Of a DNA stretch of 64,000 nt, positions 1 to 58,703 are shown in pieces. Below the pieces are notes generated by a model. That model searched no databases, was not told the origin of the DNA, and worked only from the letters and a program-made list of their open reading frames with translations. The translations under genes and the position numbers were made by a program. Numbering within the stretch: the first letter of the stretch is position 1; each line of letters opens with the position of its first letter. Location: NCBI RefSeq assembly GCF_053078305.1, contig NZ_CP166879.1; one strand, written 5' to 3'.

Positions 1-1279
1 GAACCTGTCCGTGTGCCGCCAGTTCGCCGGTGGTACTGACAGTCAGGTTGCCCGCTGCCGCCAGACGTCCGTCATCTTTCACCCCGGCGGCCAGCAGACT
101 CCGCTCACCGCCGGTCAGACGCGCTGTCTGAATCCGGGTGTTGCGACGTGATGCCACAGAGCCTGTATGGGTGAAGACACCATCACTCTGTATCTGCGTA
201 TCCTGCCCCGCATAAACAGAACCACTGTTATGCAGCTCCCGGGTTGTCGCCAGATGCACATCCGTTTTCGCACTGATACTGCCACTGTTTTCAATACGTC
301 CGTCAGCCGTCAGGGTAACCGCCCCTGCCTGTGCACCAATATGACCGGCGTTACGAACACCCACCCCCGTTTCCGTACCGACAAGGCGAATTTTTCCGGC
401 ATACATTCCGCCAAGACTGGCCACATCCAGTGCCATCTGAGGCTGTGAAGAGACATCACCGGTCTTTTTCTCAATCTGCCCGTGCGCGATATCCACATTG
501 TTACGTCCTGTGGTCACTTTCAGATCCTGCGCCCAGATACCCGCATTAATCTTCACAGACCGGGCAATGATATCGGTATAATCCGTGCGCGAGGCATCCA
601 TCCCTTTGCCCGTAACCTGAATCTCACCACGTTCAACACTGAATCCGGTCAGACTGCCGTTTTTCATCTGCGGCTGCCCCGTGGTCAGCGTGGCCCGGTT
701 CGCATTAATAAAACCGCACCCGTCGCAACTGATGCCGGCCGGGTTCGCAATCACCACCTGCGCCTTTTTACCGGCAACCTCAACAAAACCGTTCAACTGG
801 CTGGGATTGCGACTGTTCACTTCATTAAGAATGATTCTGGCCTCTCCCTTAGCCAGCCACGGGTTCCCGGCCACCATGCCACCCAGTTGAGTCTGCACAT
901 TGTTATGGGCATTATTCAGAATGACGCCCTGGTTACCGACGTCGAACTGGCTGTATGCGTTATGTGAAACCCCGCCGGCAGAAGGCGTCTGAATATTCAC
1001 CTGCGGAATGCCGCTGGCCGTCTGCGTAATCGTGGGCTGCTGATACCCTGGTGCGCCATGGTCTGCGACAATGCCTGCAGCACTGACAGAATGCACCATC
1101 CCCGAAGCCAGCCACAAAGAGAATGCAAGCGGCGTGACACGGCAGATACGTTGCCTGTGTGGATATCCTGTGCGGGAGGACAGTGATGTACCGGCGCGAC
1201 CGGAACGGGCAATATCTGCCACCACCATCAGCATTCCCCGGGCTTTGTTAAAAATAATGCGGTAACAATTTCTGTTCAT
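1..1279 (-). CDS. cdiA: TpsA/CdiA-like large exoprotein, N-terminal part only (start at 1279, continues beyond window start)
   Basis: Manual minus-strand translation from ATG at 1279..1277 gives MNRNCYRIIFNKARGMLMVVADIARSGR (extended signal peptide region) followed by a TPS secretion domain with ANPAGISCDGCGFINANRATLTTG; frame stays open to position 1. Absent from the ORF track because no stop lies in the window. Confidence 0.8.
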   Translation of the reverse strand, partial: MNRNCYRIIFNKARGMLMVVADIARSGRAGTSLSSRTGYPHRQRICRVTPLAFSLWLASGMVHSVSAAGIVADHGAPGYQQPTITQTASGIPQVNIQTPSAGGVSHNAYSQFDVGNQGVILNNAHNNVQTQLGGMVAGNPWLAKGEARIILNEVNSRNPSQLNGFVEVAGKKAQVVIANPAGISCDGCGFINANRATLTTGQPQMKNGSLTGFSVERGEIQVTGKGMDASRTDYTDIIARSVKINAGIWAQDLKVTTGRNNVDIAHGQIEKKTGDVSSQPQMALDVASLGGMYAGKIRLVGTETGVGVRNAGHIGAQAGAVTLTADGRIENSGSISAKTDVHLATTRELHNSGSVYAGQDTQIQSDGVFTHTGSVASRRNTRIQTARLTGGERSLLAAGVKDDGRLAAAGNLTVSTTGELAAHGQV

Positions 1280-1294
1280 TCTGATAAACCTGAC

Positions 1295-1822
1295 TTATCT
1301 CTCCGGCACATCCACAGCAAGCGGGTGCTGCACACGCCACTGGCGCGCCTCTTCACGACTGACCTGTGCACCCCGGAAATTCATCACCCGTAACCCGGTC
1401 TGCTGCCCACGGTGGTACAGCGAACGCCAGCACAGACGGGGAAAAATATCCTGCCGGACAAGACGACTCATATCCGGAGTGTGTCCAAAAGGGGCAACCC
1501 AGTCACAGACCCACATCCGGTCGCCGCTGTTCCAGTCCGACTGAGGCATGAGAATTGCCGGCTGCGTAAGATAACGCGCCTCTGCCTCCGGGCTGAGCCA
1601 GGCCTGGCTCATGAAGAAAACCGGTCGCCCCTGCTCTGTTGCCACCACATACTGTCGGTGCTTAATCACCGGCAGCAGCAGGTCCGGCAGGGTATGCAGT
1701 GGCGCATCACGATGCAGGGGGGAGTGCATCCACAACCAGACGGCCGCCCCCAGGACTTCCGCCTCATTGACCGGCTCACCGGAATACAGGGGACTCAGAA
1801 CGTCATATTTCCCGTTACGCAT
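1295..1822 (-). CDS. cdiC: HlyC-family toxin-activating lysine acyltransferase (CdiC-like)
   Basis: 175 aa ORF between cdiB and cdiA; WLWMHSPLHRD and SGDRMWVCDWVAPFGH resemble HlyC/CyaC acyltransferases as I recall them. Confidence 0.7.
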   Translation of the reverse strand: MRNGKYDVLSPLYSGEPVNEAEVLGAAVWLWMHSPLHRDAPLHTLPDLLLPVIKHRQYVVATEQGRPVFFMSQAWLSPEAEARYLTQPAILMPQSDWNSGDRMWVCDWVAPFGHTPDMSRLVRQDIFPRLCWRSLYHRGQQTGLRVMNFRGAQVSREEARQWRVQHPLAVDVPER

Positions 1823-1831
1823 GAAACTTTC

Positions 1832-3571
1832 TCAGAAATCCCGGAACAGATTAAAACCGGCTGTCACATCACTCGTCATAAAACCCGCCGGCTTTGAAAA
1901 CGGACGACCGATGAAAACGTCATAATCCGTACTGAACAGTTGCCCCCTCAGCCCCACAACACCACCGGCCAGATGACGTCCCACCAGATATTCACTGCCG
2001 GCTCCCCCCACCTCGCCGTAATCCATTCCCAGATATAACGCCTGCTCCGGCAGTGGCGTACGCCAGGCCAGGTCGTTGCGGATATACCAGCCGTTACTGG
2101 CATTCAGCGTTCGCTCCCCGTCAAAACCACGAACCGTCCAGCGGTTACCGATGGCAAACTGTTCCTGTGGGGTCAGCGGGGTATTGCTCAGCTGGCGCTG
2201 ATACCGGAAGGAATAACTGAAGGGCTGCTCTGCCAGTGTAAAGGGCAGATTAAAGGATGCATTCATCTGCAGGATCTTACTGAGCGCCGTTGCCTCACCG
2301 AAGATTTCCTCCGGTGCCGGCTGTGCACCAAACCAGCGGGTTCCCCGTTGCCAGCTGACACCAGCATCCAGTGTGGCCTGAGAAATATAATGACGGTGCT
2401 GCAGCCCAAGTCGCCAGGCCGCTGTCTGCCGGCGCTGCACCTGGATTTCCGTATCATTAATGTAGTTACGCGACCTGCGGGCCTGAACATCGTAAGTCAG
2501 CACCGTTTTCTGCGTCCCGTTACGATGCAGTACCCGGCTCAGCTGCATGCCCAGATTCTGACTCTCGCCACTGTACTGGTAATCCTCAACCGCACCAGCT
2601 ACCGTCTGATGGTAATCGTAATCACTGGCGGTGACGGAAAACTGCCAGTAACCGAAAGGCACAGAGTAATGGGCCGTGTAGTTTTTACTGCCCTTACCCC
2701 CGTAATGTGGAAAATTATGGGTGGCAGAAACATACAGCAGGTCACTCAGGGAAAAAGGATTATCCAGAGAAAATGTTATACCACCGAGATAACGCCCTGT
2801 GCTGCGGGTACCTGAATCATCAAGCGAAAACCCCAGTCGCCAGTATTTATCCTGTTTACGGGTAATAAGAATATCACTTTCCCCTGGCTGCTCACCGGGC
2901 ACAATTTCCATATCAGCCTGCACACCCGGCAGTCGTTGCATATTCTCCAGCCCCTGCTCAATGTCCCGTAAATCCAGCAGAGAACCTTCGTGTGCCGGGA
3001 ATGAGGAATACAACTGAATATAGTCATCACTGTCCGGTGTCAGACGCACATGTCGCACAACACCGGGAATAATAACCAGCCGGAGGATACCGCTTTTTAA
3101 ATCCTGCGAAGGTGCCAGAACACGGGTGGTGACATAACCATGATCGACCAGACGGTTCTGCAATGTACTCATCAGCAGATTAATTCCTTTCGCCCCCAGG
3201 CAATGCCCGACCGCCCCGTTGGCGATTTTTTGTAAAGGCAGCCAGTGTGGTAACGCATCAGCCCCCTTCAGTTCCGTCTGTTTAATCTGAAAACAGGGCG
3301 TTTCAACAGGAAAATTAATCTTATGGGCAAAAGAGCCAGGTGCAGAAAGGCGAACATCAGGGGCTGAAGGCGTCAGTTGTTGCTCAAGGGCTTCCTGACG
3401 CTGCTGCTGAATGATAAATGTATCCTCTCCACTACGCCGGATATCCGCTGCCTGAAGAGATAAAGGCGATAGTAAAACAGACATCAGTGTCAGTGACAGC
3501 AAGGACGGACAGCGCCGGAATACGCTTTGTTCCTCAGCCCTCTCGTTCCTGCAACATAATTTTCCAGTCAA
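1832..3571 (-). CDS. cdiB: TpsB/CdiB outer-membrane two-partner secretion transporter (ShlB/FhaC family)
   Basis: 579 aa ORF with N-terminal signal peptide, POTRA-like region and C-terminal aromatic-rich beta-barrel ending in F; directly upstream of cdiC and cdiA in the same orientation. Exact start codon uncertain. Confidence 0.75.
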
Positions 3572-7329: not shown

Positions 7330-7755
7330 TTAAGTACTCGCACCTCCGCAGTCCTCAAACAAGTCTGGCTGGTAGCTGTAAACAGACTTCGTACATACCG
7401 CTCTGCAATAAATCCCCGTACCACAGGCCTCACAGAACTTCTTCCCATGAAAAAACTGCTCACACATCACACAATGCCACTCCAGCACGACCGGTAATGG
7501 CGATAAAAACATCGCCATATCCTCAATGTAAGGGTGGGACTTCTCCGGATTCAGCACCACACAGTCCGCCTTCTGTTGCTCACTCAGGGCATGTAAATCA
7601 TGCTCAAACCACGCCCCCTGAGCATCTGTCTGCAGAATCAACCGGCCATGGCAGGAAAGGCAGAAACACTGCCGGATATTTCTGCTGAGCGCAGAGTCGG
7701 CACTGATAATGTGCTCACCCGGCGTGATCCCCAGCCCCGTTTTTATACCGTTCAT
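7330..7755 (-). CDS. Zinc-ribbon protein, paralog B (141 aa)
   Basis: Cys clusters CFCLSCHG and WHCVMCEQ...CEACGTG, plus WFEH and LPVV motifs shared with the upstream paralog; start overlaps the upstream stop by 4 nt (ATGA). Confidence 0.55.
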   Translation of the reverse strand: MNGIKTGLGITPGEHIISADSALSRNIRQCFCLSCHGRLILQTDAQGAWFEHDLHALSEQQKADCVVLNPEKSHPYIEDMAMFLSPLPVVLEWHCVMCEQFFHGKKFCEACGTGIYCRAVCTKSVYSYQPDLFEDCGGAST

Positions 7756-8135
7756 TCTGCTCCCCCCTCCTCACTGAAGCGCCCGGTCTGGCAGTGTGTG
7801 CAGTACTGCTCCCCATAATAATCGTGGTGACATTGCCTGCAGTGCCAGCTGGCTTTACGTACTACGGGTAAGGCATCCGGGACGAATTGCTGCAGACGTT
7901 TAATCAACCGTATTTCTCTGCGTTCCGGCCTGACATAAGGGCACTCATGACCGTGCTCCGTCAGCCCTTCGTCAGCGTGTTCAAACCAGGGCCGTTCAGT
8001 GTCGTATTGCGGGTGGTATCTGAGTGCACTGCCGCAAAGGTGGCAGGTGTAGCTATCGTAAGGTGCAGTCTGTGCGGTACGGGCACCGGTCAGACGTCCG
8101 TTGCCATCAAGTGCGAGAAAAGATTTTGCGTACAT
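7752..8135 (-). CDS. Zinc-ribbon protein, paralog A (127 aa)
   Basis: Cys clusters CHLCGS and WHCRQCHH...CTHCQTG with WFEH motif; GAGGAA ribosome-binding site upstream of ATG at 8135. Confidence 0.55.
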   Translation of the reverse strand: MYAKSFLALDGNGRLTGARTAQTAPYDSYTCHLCGSALRYHPQYDTERPWFEHADEGLTEHGHECPYVRPERREIRLIKRLQQFVPDALPVVRKASWHCRQCHHDYYGEQYCTHCQTGRFSEEGGAE

Positions 8136-8507: not shown

Positions 8508-9107
8508 TTACACCAGAGCACATATCCCCGGCAGGGGGCTGTCCAGTCGTGGTCGACCACGGTTACTTTTTTCAGGAAGCCCGCTGCATTTCAGGATGAT
8601 GCCACATTCTTTCTGTTCCCGTTTGGCCAGGTAGCTGATGGCATAGCGTAAATCATTCACCGCTTTGTGATCTGAATAGTGAATGACGTGGTTAATGTTT
8701 ACCGGATAATTTTTATTAAACCGGCACCAGTGGTAGTAACCATTACCATCGGTAACCCGCCTCCAGATATCTCCCATCAATCTGGATACCAGATACGAAC
8801 TCCTGTGGATCTGACCGTTCAGATAGCCCACAAAATGAATGTGAAGCCCTTTACGTTCTGTATATTCCATCACCCAGGCATACCCGACCAGTTTCTCTCC
8901 CACCTCGTTAATCAGTTGCAGCATCTCCGCGCACATGGCGTACCTGCAGGCGCATCCGTAGCTGAATGTGTTTTTTCGGTAAGCAAAATCCATTCTGAAC
9001 GGTAACAGCTTCGAATAGACCCCGAATAATGAATCCAGATGCTGGTTAAAGTGTGTCAGGAGCTGGGGAGCCATTTCGTAAGCGGGATTGGTGTTATAAG
9101 TTTGCAT
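8508..9107 (-). CDS. YagK/YfjJ-family (inovirus Gp2-like) protein, second paralog
   Basis: 199 aa; motifs YAWVMEYTERKGLHIHFVGYLNG resemble the conserved core of the YfjJ/YagK family; GAGGAA ribosome-binding site before ATG at 9107. Confidence 0.5.
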   Translation of the reverse strand: MQTYNTNPAYEMAPQLLTHFNQHLDSLFGVYSKLLPFRMDFAYRKNTFSYGCACRYAMCAEMLQLINEVGEKLVGYAWVMEYTERKGLHIHFVGYLNGQIHRSSYLVSRLMGDIWRRVTDGNGYYHWCRFNKNYPVNINHVIHYSDHKAVNDLRYAISYLAKREQKECGIILKCSGLPEKSNRGRPRLDSPLPGICALV

Positions 9108-9338
9108 GTTTCTTCCTCGTGTTCTGTAACACAGGAAGAAGCGCTGGCGTAATTTTTGAAGAAAACGTTATCACACGAAGACGTGCAAGTTCACAACTCC
9201 CCGGGCGCCACAGAGAAAGTGGGAGCACACCCGGGTATCAGAACCATACAGAGAACGGCATACGTGACTGTCAATCACAGCGCAGATAATATCTGATATG
9301 ATGTCATTGTGACGACTGTACTTCATCAGAAACATTTA

Positions 9339-9551
9339 TCAGGTAACATATTTCCAGACTGAAGCGGGAACACGATCGTAAAGTTTGTTCATGGTCAGTT
9401 CTGCCAGCCGGTGATCGACCGCAGAGTTGAAGGCTTCCATCTCCGCTGGAGTAAGCTTATAACGCGTGTGGGAAATCACTTTTTCCAGTGTCTCCCGGGA
9501 TGAACAACGACGGAACTGATACAGCCAGTCTTCTTTGGTCTTAACTTCCAT
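9339..9551 (-). CDS. Hha/YmoA-family modulator paralog (70 aa)
   Basis: C-terminal [22 protein letters not shown] is near-identical to the Hha signature as I recall it; start ATG at 9551 chosen inside the longer 117 aa ORF. Confidence 0.75.
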   Translation of the reverse strand: [70 protein letters not shown]

Positions 9552-9699
9552 TATCCTCTCGTTATTTTGTGCTGTGATTAACGTTAACATAATACCGTCA
9601 GAATAACGTATTCTGACGTCATCCCGGAAGTCTTTCCACTTTCCTGTCTCTCCGGTAATAAAACATTTTAAATGCTGAAGGCATAACGCCATAACCAGA

Positions 9700-10190
9700 T
9701 ATTACAAGTAACGTGGCGTTACACGTGTTAATGCATTACAGAAGTAACAGAGACAATCAGATAGTAAACAACACTCCGGAAGACTGTTTAATGGCATAGG
9801 TATACTTTTTACGATCACAATATTATATCACTACCAAAATTCATCAGGTGAACTGCAAAAGCAAAACATTAACAGTTCTCCCTCAACCACCGTTATCCAC
9901 ACTATTGACACTGACGATTCATACTCTTATTTAGCCAGAATAGCCTCCACACAACAGGCATTACTTAACAAAGTACATTACAGTCAGTGTGTGTACATGA
10001 CAGATTTATATTCAGGTGTTACGAGATTACATTACAGCAGAGAGAGTTAAGGACAGAGTTACAAGTACTACTACAGAGAATATCTCTGTACAGATACTTC
10101 TATGAGCATATCTTTATGAGAGATCCGTCTACAGGATTGGGTTACAAGGTGGAATTACAGAATTACAGGGTTCATTTACATAACCATACT
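9700..10190. repeat. AT-rich divergent intergenic region with about ten degenerate TTACA(G/A) repeats
   Basis: ATTACAG at about 9734, 9975, 10028, 10153, 10161; GTTACAAG at 10057 and 10141; related copies at 9710 and 9719; lies between the minus-strand block ending at hha and the plus-strand block starting at 10503. Confidence 0.6.
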
Positions 10191-10502
10191 TCTATAAATA
10201 ATACTAATTAACCTTAATTATTTTTTAATAGTACATGAACTGCCTGTAGCTGTAACGACAAATCACCCAAAATGAAAAATACTGGTTATCACGGTTCAGA
10301 GAACTCGTATAAGTACCTCCCCCCTGAGCAATGCTTCATTTTCTGTGGTTCTATGTGATAGAGTTATGCTGAGTACAGTGGCAGTAACCCTGCTTTCCAC
10401 CACTCAATGACAAAACACACAAAAAATTAATTATATGAATTAACAGTGTTTTTTATGGAATGTTATGCATATCAACCAATATGATTAACAGAAAACTTCA
10501 TC

Positions 10503-11294
10503 ATGACAACACGTATAACTTTCAATATGACCAGTGATGAGACGCTGCGAATTGTGGATGAGTACTGTCATACCCACAAACTTTCGCGCTCTAAGGTAAT
10601 CGACGCATTACTCAGCGCCACAGCACCTGTCCTTAACGATATTAACTGTTATTATCAACTTGCAGGCAAACTGCAGTCACGCTTATTAAATGGAGTGTAT
10701 CAACGGGATCTTCCTCACAAACGCAATGTCGTCAGTGCAGAGAAGTATTGTCTGGAAATCTGGGAAAACAAACTTTTCACCAAAAGAATCCTGGAGTTTG
10801 ACAGTTCAAATGGTGTTCTATACGCGCTGAAACATAAAAGACACTATCGCCGGGATAAGATGATTGGACGGGTTGAAAGCCGGCGTATCAAAGACATTTG
10901 CGAATACCAGATGCAACTGTCCGGGGAGAAGGCAAAATATGCCTGTTTTATTTATATTGAAAGAACAATATACAATCACGATAATCCATCCGGTGAAACA
11001 CCTGTAAAAGCGGCTGTTGGTAATGCAGTCATCCTGCTGGCAAAAGACGTGATATATGACGAGTACTTTTTTGATCTGCGGCAGTCATTTTTCGTGAGCG
11101 TTAAAGATTTGATGGCCTCTGGCGCAAAAGGTATTCCGGAGACACAGAAATATCCGGACGTTTATTGCTGGATCCCGCTTTTCTCCATAAATTCCGGCGT
11201 GGTCATTACCCCGGTCTATAAAATTGATCCCCGGAAACCCGTAACGGTAAAAAAACCGGATCAGATCACTGTTGTTTGTAATTACAGAGAATAA
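10503..11294 (+). CDS. Hypothetical protein with N-terminal ribbon-helix-helix-like domain (263 aa)
   Basis: N-terminus TRITFNMTSDETLRIVDEYCHTHKLSRSKVIDALL has a beta-strand plus two-helix RHH pattern; the remaining 220 aa is unrecognised. Confidence 0.5.
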   Translation: MTTRITFNMTSDETLRIVDEYCHTHKLSRSKVIDALLSATAPVLNDINCYYQLAGKLQSRLLNGVYQRDLPHKRNVVSAEKYCLEIWENKLFTKRILEFDSSNGVLYALKHKRHYRRDKMIGRVESRRIKDICEYQMQLSGEKAKYACFIYIERTIYNHDNPSGETPVKAAVGNAVILLAKDVIYDEYFFDLRQSFFVSVKDLMASGAKGIPETQKYPDVYCWIPLFSINSGVVITPVYKIDPRKPVTVKKPDQITVVCNYRE

Positions 11295-11676
11295 TTTCAG
11301 TCTTCTCCGTTCACCGCAACAGTGTTTACCTCTGCTTTATCTTCCTTTCAGTAAATACAAACCACAGCTCTGGCAGGTACAGGGCGTGGTTTATCTCCGA
11401 TACTCCCCTGCGCAGTAATAATCATCACTGAAAATACTGATTCCGTCACGGCAAAACGCCATCCCATATTCCGGCAACACAAAATCATCTTCCGTTTATA
11501 CCGGCTTCACTGACAAAACAGACAACCTGTATTGCCTGTACACAACAGTTTCTCTCCTGGCAGGAATATTCCTCAACTTTTTTACGTTTCTCCCCGGTTG
11601 TTATGCCGGTGAAGGTGGTGCGTCGTTTTCATCACCAACGCCGGTTGAGATTAACAACATCCGGAGGAACATTTTC

Positions 11677-11883
11677 ATGAAGACCCCAGTTTCGCTGATG
11701 GATGACCAGATGGTCGACATGGCGTTTATCACTCAACTGACCGGCTTAACCGATAAGTGGTTTTATAAGCTCATCAAAGATGGTGCCTTTCCGGCCCCCA
11801 TCAAACTCGGCCGCAGCTCCCGATGGCTGAAAAGTGAAGTGGAAGCCTGGTTGCAGGCGCGTATTGCACAATCCCGTCCGTAA
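11677..11883 (+). CDS. alpA: AlpA-family prophage transcriptional regulator
   Basis: 68 aa; helix-turn-helix segment FITQLTGLTDKWFYKLIKDGAFPAPIKLGRSSRWLKSEVEAWL typical of AlpA; GGAGG ribosome-binding site at 11664. Confidence 0.8.
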   Translation: MKTPVSLMDDQMVDMAFITQLTGLTDKWFYKLIKDGAFPAPIKLGRSSRWLKSEVEAWLQARIAQSRP

Positions 11884-16239: not shown

Positions 16240-16280
16240 ACGATCGATAAAACAGATATCGATCGTTACTATCGATCGTT
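16240..16280 (+). promoter_or_regulatory. agn43 (flu) regulatory region with three GATC sites (OxyR / Dam phase-variation switch)
   Basis: GATC at 16242, 16261 and 16274 within cgatcgataaaacagatatcgatcgttactatcgatcg, about 220 bp upstream of the flu start; matches the known agn43 switch architecture. Confidence 0.75.
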
Positions 16281-16494
16281 TATAGTGGTTAATGGTCTGC
16301 GAAAAGGCAGTTGAATCTCTTCATCATGCAGAACGGAATTGCACAAAACGGACTGATACTTCTCTGGCGGATGAGAGAGGGGAAGCATTTATGTCCGGGA
16401 AAAACCACTGTATCTGACCATGCTGTTTTGTACCTGCCGGTATCCACATTTGTGGGTACCGGCTTTTTTATTCACCCTCTGTAAGGAAAAGCTG

Positions 16495-19400
16495 ATGAAA
16501 CGACATCTGAACACCAGCTACAGGCTGGTATGGAATCACATTACGGGCACCCTGGTGGTGGCCTCCGAACTGGCCCGCTCACGGGGAAAACGCGCCGGTG
16601 TGGCGGTTGCTCTGTCTCTTGCTACTGTCACGTCAGTCCCGGCACTGGCTGCTGACACGGTTGTTCAGGCAGGAGAAACCGTGAATGGCGGAACACTGGT
16701 AAACCATGACAACCAGTTTGTATCCGGAACAGCTGATGGCGTGACTGTCAGTACCGGGCTTGAGCTGGGGCCGGACAGTGACGAAAACACCGGCGGGCAA
16801 TGGATAAAAGCGGGTGGCACAGGCAGAAACACCACTGTCACCGCAAATGGTCGTCAGATTGTGCAGGCAGGAGGAACTGCCAGTGATACGGTTATTCGTG
16901 ACGGCGGGGGACAGAGCCTGAACGGGCTGGCGGTGAACACCACGCTGAATAACAGAGGCGAGCAGTGGGTTCATGAGGGCGGGGTTGCCACCGGTACAAT
17001 TATCAACCGCGACGGTTACCAGAGCGTTAAAAGTGGCGGGCTGGCAACAGGAACCATCATCAACACCGGCGCAGAAGGCGGCCCGGATTCTGACAACTCG
17101 TACACGGGTCAGAAGGTCCAGGGAACAGCAGAATCCACCACCATCAACAAAAATGGACGGCAGATTATCTTATTTTCCGGGATAGCCCGTGACACTCTCA
17201 TTTACGCAGGTGGTGACCAGTCGGTACACGGAAGGGCCCTGAATACCACACTGAATGGCGGTTACCAGTATGTGCACAAGGACGGACTTGCGCTGAACAC
17301 GGTAATTAACGAGGGGGGCTGGCAGGTTGTTAAGGCAGGTGGTGCTGTCGGTAACACCACCATAAATCAGAACGGTGAACTGAGAGTACATGCCGGCGGG
17401 GAAGCAACTGCAGTCACCCAGAACACGGGCGGTGCACTGGTTACCAGTACGGCTGCAACCGTTACCGGCATAAACCGCCTGGGAGCATTCTCCGTTGTGG
17501 CGGGTAAGGCTGATAATGTCGTACTGGAAAATGGCGGACGTCTGGATGTGCTGAGCGGACACACAGCCACTAATACCCGTGTGGATGATGGCGGAACGCT
17601 GGATGTCCGCAACGGTGGTGCCGCCACCACCGTATCCATGGGGAATGGCGGTGTACTGCTGGCCGATTCCGGGGCCGCTGTCAGTGGTACCCGGAGCGAC
17701 GGAAAGGCATTCAGTATCGGAGGCGGTCAGGCGGATGCCCTGATGCTGGAAAAAGGCAGTTCCTTCACACTGAACGCCGGTGATACGGCCACGGATACCA
17801 CGGTAAATGGCGGACTGTTCACCGCCAGAGGGGGCTCGCTGGCGGGCACCACCACGCTGAATAACGGTGCCACGCTTACCCTTTCCGGGAAAACGGTGAA
17901 TAACGATACCCTGACCATCCATGAAGGTGATGCACTCCTGCAGGGAGGCGCTCTTACCGGTAACGGCAGGGTGGAAAAATCAGGAAGTGGCACACTCACT
18001 GTCAGCAACACCACACTCATCCAGAAAACCGTCAACCTGAATGAAGGCACGCTGACGCTGAACGACAGTACCGTCACCACGGATGTCATCGCTCAGCGCG
18101 GCACGGCCCTGAAGCTGACCGGCAGCACAGTGCTGAACGGTGCCATTGACCCCACGAATGTCACCCTGACATCCGGTGCCACCTGGAATATCCCCGATAA
18201 CGCCACGGTGCAGTCGGTGGTGGATGACCTCAGCCATGCCGGACAGATTCATTTCACCTCCACCCGCACAGGGAAGTTCGTACCGGCAACCCTGAAAGTG
18301 AAAAACCTGAACGGGCAGAATGGCACCATCAGCCTGCGTGTACGCCCGGATATGGCACAGAACAATGCTGACAGACTGGTCATTGACGGCGGCAGGGCAA
18401 CCGGAAAAACCATCCTGAACATGGTGAACGCCGGCAACAGTGCGTCGGGGCTGGCGACCAGCGGTAAGGGTATTCAGGTGGTGGAAGCCATTAACGGTGC
18501 CACCACGGAGGAAGGGGCCTTTGTCCAGGGGAACAGGCTGCAGGCCGGGGCCTTTAACTACTCCCTCAACCGGGACAGTGATGAGAGCTGGTATCTGCGC
18601 AGTGAAAATGCTTATCGTGCAGAAGTCCCCCTGTATGCCTCCATGCTGACACAGGCAATGGACTATGACCGGATTCTGGCAGGCTCCCGCAGCCATCAGA
18701 CCGGTGTAAACGGTGAAAATAACAGCGTCCGTCTCAGCATTCAGGGCGGCCATCTCGGTCACGATAACAACGGCGGTATTGTCCGTGGGGCCACGCCGGA
18801 AAGCAGCGGCAGCTATGGCTTCGTCCGCCTGGAGGGTGACCTGCTGAGAACAGAGGTTGCCGGTATGTCTCTGACGACAGGGGTGTATGGTGCTGCAGGC
18901 CATTCTTCCGTTGATGTTAAGAATGATGACGGCTCCCGTGCCGGCACGGTCCGGGATGATGCCGGCAGTCTGGGCGGATACCTGAATCTGGTACACAACG
19001 CCTCCGGCCTGTGGGCTGACATTGTGGCCCAGGGAACCCGCCACAGCATGAAAGCGTCATCGGACAATAACGACTTCCGCGCCCGGGGCTGGGGCTGGCT
19101 GGGCTCACTGGAAACCGGTCTGCCCTTCAGTATCACTGACAATCTGATGCTGGAGCCGCAACTGCAGTACACCTGGCAGGGACTCTCCCTGGATGACGGC
19201 CAGGATAACGCCGGTTATGTGAAGTTCGGGCATGGCAGTGCACAACATGTGCGTGCCGGTTTCCGTCTGGGCAGCCACAACGATATGACCTTTGGTGAAG
19301 GCACCTCATCCCGTGACACCCTGCGCGGCAGTGCCAAACACAGTGTGCGTGAACTGCCGGTGAACTGGTGGGTACAGCCTTCTGTTATCCGCACCTTCAG

Positions 19401-19617
19401 CTCCCGGGGGGACATGAGCATGGGTACAGCCGCAGCCGGCAGTAACATGACGTTCTCACCGTCACAGAATGGTACGTCACTGGACCTGCAGGCCGGACTG
19501 GAAGCCCGTGTCCGGGAAAATATCACCCTGGGCGTTCAGGCTGGTTATGTCCACAGCGTCAGCGGCAGCAGCGCTGAAGGCTATAACGGTCAGGCCACGC
19601 TGAATGTGACCTTCTGA
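16495..19617 (+). CDS. flu: Antigen 43 self-associating autotransporter
   Basis: N-terminus MKRHLNTSYRLVWNHITGTLVVASELARSRGKRAGVAVALSLA is the Ag43 signal peptide; repetitive alpha domain and C-terminal beta-barrel ending NVTF. Start set at ATG 16495 rather than the track start 16420. Confidence 0.95.
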   Translation: MKRHLNTSYRLVWNHITGTLVVASELARSRGKRAGVAVALSLATVTSVPALAADTVVQAGETVNGGTLVNHDNQFVSGTADGVTVSTGLELGPDSDENTGGQWIKAGGTGRNTTVTANGRQIVQAGGTASDTVIRDGGGQSLNGLAVNTTLNNRGEQWVHEGGVATGTIINRDGYQSVKSGGLATGTIINTGAEGGPDSDNSYTGQKVQGTAESTTINKNGRQIILFSGIARDTLIYAGGDQSVHGRALNTTLNGGYQYVHKDGLALNTVINEGGWQVVKAGGAVGNTTINQNGELRVHAGGEATAVTQNTGGALVTSTAATVTGINRLGAFSVVAGKADNVVLENGGRLDVLSGHTATNTRVDDGGTLDVRNGGAATTVSMGNGGVLLADSGAAVSGTRSDGKAFSIGGGQADALMLEKGSSFTLNAGDTATDTTVNGGLFTARGGSLAGTTTLNNGATLTLSGKTVNNDTLTIHEGDALLQGGALTGNGRVEKSGSGTLTVSNTTLIQKTVNLNEGTLTLNDSTVTTDVIAQRGTALKLTGSTVLNGAIDPTNVTLTSGATWNIPDNATVQSVVDDLSHAGQIHFTSTRTGKFVPATLKVKNLNGQNGTISLRVRPDMAQNNADRLVIDGGRATGKTILNMVNAGNSASGLATSGKGIQVVEAINGATTEEGAFVQGNRLQAGAFNYSLNRDSDESWYLRSENAYRAEVPLYASMLTQAMDYDRILAGSRSHQTGVNGENNSVRLSIQGGHLGHDNNGGIVRGATPESSGSYGFVRLEGDLLRTEVAGMSLTTGVYGAAGHSSVDVKNDDGSRAGTVRDDAGSLGGYLNLVHNASGLWADIVAQGTRHSMKASSDNNDFRARGWGWLGSLETGLPFSITDNLMLEPQLQYTWQGLSLDDGQDNAGYVKFGHGSAQHVRAGFRLGSHNDMTFGEGTSSRDTLRGSAKHSVRELPVNWWVQPSVIRTFSSRGDMSMGTAAAGSNMTFSPSQNGTSLDLQAGLEARVRENITLGVQAGYVHSVSGSSAEGYNGQATLNVTF

Positions 19618-58404: not shown

Positions 58405-58480
<76 letters not shown>

Positions 58481-58515
58481 TTGGGTGGTCTGTGCCTTAC
58501 AGCACTTTCAAATTT

Positions 58516-58591
<76 letters not shown>

Positions 58592-58627
58592 TTGGGTGGT
58601 CTGTGCTTTGCAGCACTTTTCAAATTT

Positions 58628-58703
<76 letters not shown>

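Follow-up and report, generated by a model that had tools for sequence, protein, structure and literature searches.

An intact hha2 allele on a CP4-44-like island of Escherichia coli, very probably encoding an H-NS co-repressor

Hha-family proteins bind no DNA alone and raise the DNA affinity of H-NS (PMC6009659, PMC4519777). Hha docks on H-NS or StpA at the N-terminal domain, favouring bridging and RNA polymerase pausing (PMC6009659), and its binding to H-NS strictly requires D48, with E25 also important (PMC4519777); C18 of Hha is a cysteine conserved in the family and the target of TomB (PMC5155140). The closest described relative of the gene analysed here is hha2 of enteroaggregative E. 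coli 042. In that strain, single mutants of hha, hha2 and hha3 each alter expression of one ag43 copy, EC042_2242, and the copy EC042_4511, on the same island as hha2, shows no significant effect of the paralogs; transcription of hha2 comes close to that of hha, and hha3 is weakly expressed (PMC4864382). In the 042 hha hha2 double mutant, mainly horizontally acquired genes are derepressed (PMC5861252), and within 'region 2', a duplicated flu-yeeR-irmA island region, every reported gene is raised 2.2-6.2-fold in that mutant and the same genes are derepressed 2.2-5.9-fold in an hns mutant (PMC6480617). These mutants show that islands of this type are repressed by Hha, Hha2 and H-NS. Linkage of hha2 to flu-yeeR-irmA has also been published (PMC6480617).

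Earlier work has already described this gene and its family, the island on which it lies and its part in co-repression with H-NS (Prieto et al. 2016; PMC6480617; PMC5861252). The window, a stretch of 64,000 nucleotides from an E. coli chromosome (contig NZ_CP166879.1 of assembly GCF_053078305.1), carries an open reading frame that is an intact hha2 allele, one of the extra Hha-family genes that pathogenic and other E. coli have acquired horizontally. It sits in a CP4-44-like island backbone and very probably acts as an H-NS co-repressor. The gene is already known, common and correctly named in RefSeq.

The reading frame and its product

The coding sequence and its ribosome-binding site were located as follows.

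9339-9551, minus strand, stop codon included: hha2-type coding sequence, 70 aa, Hha/YmoA family, predicted four-helix H-NS co-repressor
9554-9560, minus strand: Shine-Dalgarno sequence GAGAGGA, read from the sequence, 2-3 nt 5′ of the ATG at 9551

Translation of 9339-9551 gives a protein that begins MEVKTKEDW and ends ASVWKYVT. The first-pass annotation had placed the gene and its 70-aa product exactly, without stating that it lies on the minus strand, and the Hha signature that it quoted was essentially right, save that the residue before DHRL is V and not A. A longer in-frame reading frame of 117 aa, starting from 9692, was considered and rejected: its start is unconserved, because homology to the 042 hha2 locus reaches only to 9584, and the extension brings no domain. 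Since the extension has neither homology nor a domain, and since the 70-aa form is the one annotated by RefSeq in near-identical genomes, the 70-aa product was taken as the real one.

The protein was matched by the Pfam HHA profile (PF05321; residues 13-67, E 7.1e-27, 93.9 bits against a cut-off of 25) and, at 105.8 bits against a cut-off of 90, by the NCBIfam model NF008191 ('hemolysin expression modulator Hha'); it fell below the cut-off of the YdgT/Cnu equivalog NCBIfam NF007703 (49.9 bits vs 101). Sequence matches in the PDB were to Hha (1JW2, E 2.7e-22), YmoA (2K5S, E 3.4e-21) and Cnu/YdgT (2JQT, E 1.2e-10). Judged by these scores, the family match is far beyond chance. Alignment was gapless to core Hha of E. 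coli and Salmonella (1JW2, 2MW2, 4ICG), with 37/65 residues identical (57%), and to YmoA, the Yersinia core orthologue, with 36/65 identical (55%); Cnu/YdgT shares the family and the fold but aligns with three gaps at ~46% identity. Alignment with these three proteins was the check that the first-pass annotation had proposed for its family call, and it came out in favour of that call.

An AlphaFold2 model of the protein (mean pLDDT 91) has four helices, at residues 6-13, 19-30, 35-54 and 63-67, and its best match in the PDB is Hha in its crystal complex with the N-terminal domain of H-NS (4ICG chain C, TM 0.91, rmsd 0.9 Å). The predicted fold, shared with core Hha and YmoA, is that of a small (~8 kDa) single-domain four-helix protein without a separate DNA-binding domain. 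In a nine-sequence alignment of family members, D46 and E23 are invariant and C16 is kept in all but Cnu; these three residues align with D48, E25 and C18 of Hha, respectively. By homology, the protein should act with H-NS. Taken with the island context described below, the profiles, alignment, predicted fold and contact residues bear out the first-pass reading of the gene as a Hha/YmoA-family paralog on a horizontally acquired island.

Allele identity, distribution and selection

Compared with Hha2 of 042 (EC042_4516; PMC4864382, PMC6480617), the protein has the same length and is identical at 68/70 residues (97%), with P35 and M38 in the window protein where 042 has L and L; the coding sequences are 93.4% identical over the full 213 nt. 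Identity to hha3 of 042 is lower, at 86.6% over 157 nt. By the definition of Prieto et al. 2016 (PMC4864382), in which a BLASTN identity of ≥90% over a coverage of ≥80% marks an hha2 allele, the window gene is such an allele. The exact 70-aa sequence is held by NCBI as 'MULTISPECIES: hemolysin expression modulator Hha' and occurs in at least 1000 contigs. A megablast search with the gene found hha2/hha3-type genes in 2488 of 5426 complete E. coli genomes (~46%), a single genome holding as many as five copies; of the 3706 places in these genomes, all but one (3705) are chromosomal. Core Hha differs in these respects, the window gene having no tomB partner, lying on a mobile island, and belonging to a type found in fewer than half of genomes and sometimes in several copies.

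Outside the hha2/hha3 group, the closest relatives are the Hha proteins of IncI1, IncX4 and IncHI plasmids, which are likewise horizontally transferred. Identity of the window protein is 66% to IncX4 Hha and 70% to IncI1 Hha (alignment A1), as against the lower value for core Hha given above, and this closer kinship supports a mobile-element lineage for hha2. Hha homologues were found on at least 5000 plasmids, mostly conjugative. The plasmid copies differ in lying in transfer or leading regions, and IncX4 hha is directly beside a plasmid hns gene, whereas no hns paralog is listed near hha2 in the annotation of the collinear locus of E. coli strain GPEC1176.

Among four distinct intact alleles, pairwise dN/dS was 0.03-0.09, with 5-9% nucleotide differences and just 2-3 amino-acid differences. 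On these substitution patterns, intact alleles are under strong purifying selection. Many other copies are decaying: a frameshift was found in WCHEC115106, and 5′-truncations in AR_0104, ATCC 25922 and hha3 of 042. As many copies are truncated or frameshifted, hha2 is dispensable in many backgrounds. Pseudogene or 5′-truncated copies of the hha2/hha3 type were located at L003:18133-18309, L005:4001-4212, L007:4001-4180 and L015:2264-2413 in the set of related loci. The hha3 gene of 042 is annotated in RefSeq at 58 aa, is truncated at its 5′ end and has stop codons upstream, and this truncation may bear on its published weak expression.

The island and its variable AT-rich module

Positions 3439-32600 of the window are collinear with GPEC1176 at 98.6-99.6% identity, the sole difference being an IS2 element that GPEC1176 carries at window positions 9310-9314, ~25 bp 3′ of hha. 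In the collinear GPEC1176 annotation, the island comprises, in order, Gp2/YagK-like genes, two DUF7828 zinc-ribbon genes, hha, orf263, an AlpA-like helix-turn-helix gene, hypothetical genes, a GTPase, Ag43, a YeeR-like protein, IrmA, DUF905, DUF932, an antirestriction protein, YeeS, a DUF987 protein (YeeT-like), YeeU/CbtA and DUF4942, followed by ulaD; IS remnants also lie in the island. The window gene is accordingly found on a variable island with the flu-yeeR-irmA cluster and IS elements. The following genes of this island bear on the setting of hha2.

7330-7755 and 7752-8135, minus strand: two overlapping DUF7828 + zinc-ribbon genes, from Pfam and synteny, conserved backbone 3′ of the Gp2-like gene
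8508-9107, minus strand: Gp2/YagK-YfjJ-like protein immediately 3′ of hha2, from RefSeq annotation and synteny, conserved backbone neighbour
11677-11883, plus strand: AlpA-family helix-turn-helix regulator (Pfam Phage_AlpA, E 4.3e-9), conserved island-backbone neighbour of hha2
16420-19617, plus strand: Ag43 autotransporter gene on the same island, annotation transferred from the collinear GPEC1176 locus

The same backbone order, in which an AlpA-like gene is followed by hha, a Gp2-like gene and a pair of zinc-ribbon genes, was seen again in the inspected loci of several genomes. The two DUF7828 + zinc-ribbon genes are paralogous, and the Gp2-like protein gave weak Pfam matches under the gathering cut-offs (REP_ORF2-G2P, E 4.5e-5; YagK_YfjJ_C, E 1.4e-4). 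The 042 locus is alike in its AlpA-like and Gp2-like neighbours and in an island with Ag43, YeeR-like protein and IrmA, and hha2 sits there a few kilobases from ag43 on the same kind of island; its chromosomal position is another, since the window island abuts ulaD. Genes of the ag43 class are reported targets of Hha, Hha2 and Hha3 in 042 (PMC4864382). At 16240-16476, reaching across the start of the Ag43 gene, Rfam matches IS102 RNA (74.7 bits against a gathering score of 46).

Searches of hha2, orf263, orf190 and the Gp2-like gene with PADLOC gave nothing meaningful, and searches of the same genes with PHROGs gave only one family of unknown function, for the Gp2-like gene; assignment of any of the four to anti-phage defence or to a phage family was dropped on these results.

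At the right end of the island (~27954-28876), the DUF4942 gene directly adjoins ulaD, with no tRNA at the junction and no integrase listed there in the collinear GPEC1176 annotation. In GPEC1176, whose left flank is lutABC, ulaE and ulaF are not annotated beside ulaD. This arrangement suggests that island-mediated rearrangement shaped the ulaD junction. The left boundary of the island falls outside the window, and positions 1-3571 match two-partner-secretion genes of related genomes, namely those for a ShlB/FhaC-family transporter and a filamentous haemagglutinin N-terminal domain protein. Within the core-genome portion of the window, at 58405-58703, there are three tRNA-Gly(GCC) genes in tandem (glyVXY-like).

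Between hha2 and the AlpA-like gene, the window carries DNA that differs between hha2-bearing islands, with the following features.

9552-10502, no strand: divergent intergenic region between hha2 (minus) and orf263 (plus), 951 bp, 36.1% GC vs 51.5% for the window
9585-11547, no strand: variable module of 1.96 kb, made up of the AT-rich intergenic region and orf263
9596-9618, no strand: perfect 10-bp inverted repeat with a 3-nt loop, ~45 nt 5′ of the hha2 start
~10130-10180, also at 9735, 9977 and 10031: short degenerate tandem tract resembling GGTAGAATTACAG, one strand of which shows ATTACAG five times
10503-11294, plus strand: orf263, uncharacterised, 263 aa, Pfam PF27701 (UCP007319), 'YagM family' in one RefSeq record

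The first-pass annotation had set the gene beside a strongly AT-rich, repeat-laden intergenic region and AT-rich orphan genes. The base composition agrees with this description, and the repeats are real but modest, with five occurrences of ATTACAG on one strand of 9552-10502 where 0.2 are expected. The neighbouring genes are moderately AT-rich (42.8% GC in orf263, 35% GC across 13-15 kb), and orf263 is not an orphan, given its Pfam family PF27701. In the local Pfam copy, PADLOC and PHROGs, no match to orf263 was obtained; its N-terminus gave a weak match to aCcr1 (E 0.0025) and may be ribbon-helix-helix-like.

The module was found in 763 of the 5426 complete E. coli genomes, and E. coli 042 has an unrelated 536 bp in its place, so that 042 lacks the extra AT-rich orf263 module of the window. 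Copy number in the repeat tract differs among the window, ATCC 25922 and SX23 through indels, and the tract ends beside a promoter-like site at 10175-10202. The upstream regions of hha2 in 042, AVS0456 and 19KM1803 have 48-50% GC and contain no ATTACAG, nor does the heptamer occur 5′ of the orf263 homologues from Citrobacter and one further contig; in these other island variants the tract is missing from both places. The idea that the ATTACAG repeats form an operator array conserved for hha2 or orf263 was rejected on these absences and on the varying length of the tract. The palindrome at 9596-9618 could serve as a hairpin in the 5′ leader or as an operator; ATCC 25922, whose adjacent hha copy is truncated, has a disrupted version of it. 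An Rfam scan gave no family at the gathering score in the AT-rich intergenic region, the only non-tRNA match being the IS102 RNA at 16240-16476 described above, and scans for a consensus promoter and terminator of hha2 gave nothing convincing. Just 33 bp 5′ of the hha2 ATG are common to the window and 042 loci, and hha2 promoters therefore probably differ between island variants. It is a possibility that the variable slot beside hha2 (orf263 module, polymorphic tract and leader palindrome) sets hha2 expression in each island variant.

A conserved functional pair of hha2 and orf263 was likewise rejected, as the orf263 homologues of Citrobacter and of another contig lie in comparable AlpA/Gp2 islands that have no hha, and hha2 also occurs without orf263. 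Because the AT-rich neighbour is a variable insert, its adjacency to hha2 is weak evidence for local silencing; the adjacency of hha2 to AT-rich DNA is incidental and no sign of a dedicated regulatory pair. The AT-rich neighbouring DNA is still of the kind typically bound by H-NS and Hha.

Role in silencing and alternative explanations

The proposal in the first-pass annotation that the gene may modulate silencing of its island is in line, by analogy, with the data on Hha2 mutants of 042, while the argument from adjacency is weak for the reason just given. For any repressor phenotype of the window gene we rely on published work with Hha2 of 042, which is 97% identical, and the share of hha2 in that phenotype is not separable from that of hha, the published transcriptome being that of the hha hha2 double mutant. 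As the ag43 copy EC042_4511 was not significantly affected by the paralogs, any effect of Hha2 seems to be exerted in trans and broadly, and a role restricted strictly in cis to its own island is disfavoured. From homology and the published data on 042, we infer that this copy binds H-NS and adds to silencing in its own host. In the mechanism proposed, Hha2 would act as an 8-kDa four-helix protein without a DNA-binding domain of its own; its acidic face (D46, E23) would dock onto H-NS or StpA at the N-terminal dimerisation domain, and its basic face would be turned toward DNA, raising the DNA affinity of H-NS filaments and promoting DNA bridging. On foreign DNA rich in AT, the bridged filaments would then stop RNA polymerase or make it pause.

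Three other explanations of the gene were weighed against this co-repressor role. Frameshifted or 5′-truncated copies are frequent in other genomes, hha3 is weakly expressed in 042 (PMC4864382), and IS elements commonly flank the gene, the IS2 of GPEC1176 lying ~25 bp downstream; these observations would fit a decaying passenger without current function in its host, a remnant of a mobile element's past. The window copy, however, is full length and has a Shine-Dalgarno sequence, the dN/dS values among intact alleles are low (0.03-0.09), all residues critical for contact with H-NS are kept, and hha2 of 042 is transcribed close to the level of hha (PMC4864382), which together make a mere passenger quite improbable. 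A main role as the toxin of a Hha/TomB-like (type VII) toxin-antitoxin module that stabilises the island is suggested by the toxicity of overproduced core Hha, which TomB neutralises through oxidation of C18 (PMC5155140), by retention of the equivalent cysteine C16, and by other addiction-type genes, CbtA/YeeU, on the same island. An antitoxin partner was sought in the surrounding DNA: there is no minus-strand reading frame of ≥40 aa upstream of hha2, and so no tomB/ybaJ-like one, the small neighbouring reading frames have no match to any Pfam family, and the upstream neighbour is a divergent AlpA-like gene or orf263 in every related locus inspected and never a TomB homologue. No tomB/ybaJ antitoxin gene is annotated in eight related loci, and a toxin of a type VII module is a very improbable description of the gene.

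Paralogs of nucleoid proteins can be dominant negatives, and the 042 ag43 copy beside hha2 is not repressed by the paralogs (PMC4864382), so Hha2 might conceivably titrate H-NS or form non-productive complexes with it, allowing island genes such as Ag43 to escape repression. Such anti-silencing is hardly credible: when hha and hha2 are both deleted, horizontally acquired genes go up in expression, not down (PMC5861252, PMC6480617), loss of hha2 alone shifts ag43 EC042_2242 in the same direction as loss of hha does (PMC4864382), and the basic surface and acidic contact residues are kept as in the co-repressor Hha.

Beyond correct annotation, an ordinary hha2 allele in its usual context has little consequence. 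Modestly useful are the island variant itself, in which a 1.96-kb AT-rich insert stands between hha2 and the upstream neighbour that it usually has, the kinship to plasmid Hha, and the purifying selection on intact alleles as against decay elsewhere. A broader reading, that each island of the CP4-44 type imports an Hha copy of its own, which would be a 'stealth' or dose-compensation device, is offered tentatively, as an idea that is on balance doubtful; it draws on the analogy with H-NS and Hha genes carried by plasmids and on the presence of up to five hha2/hha3-type copies in one genome. If it were true, each new AT-rich island would top up the Hha pool in proportion to the H-NS that it titrates, and the cost of acquiring such an island would be lowered.
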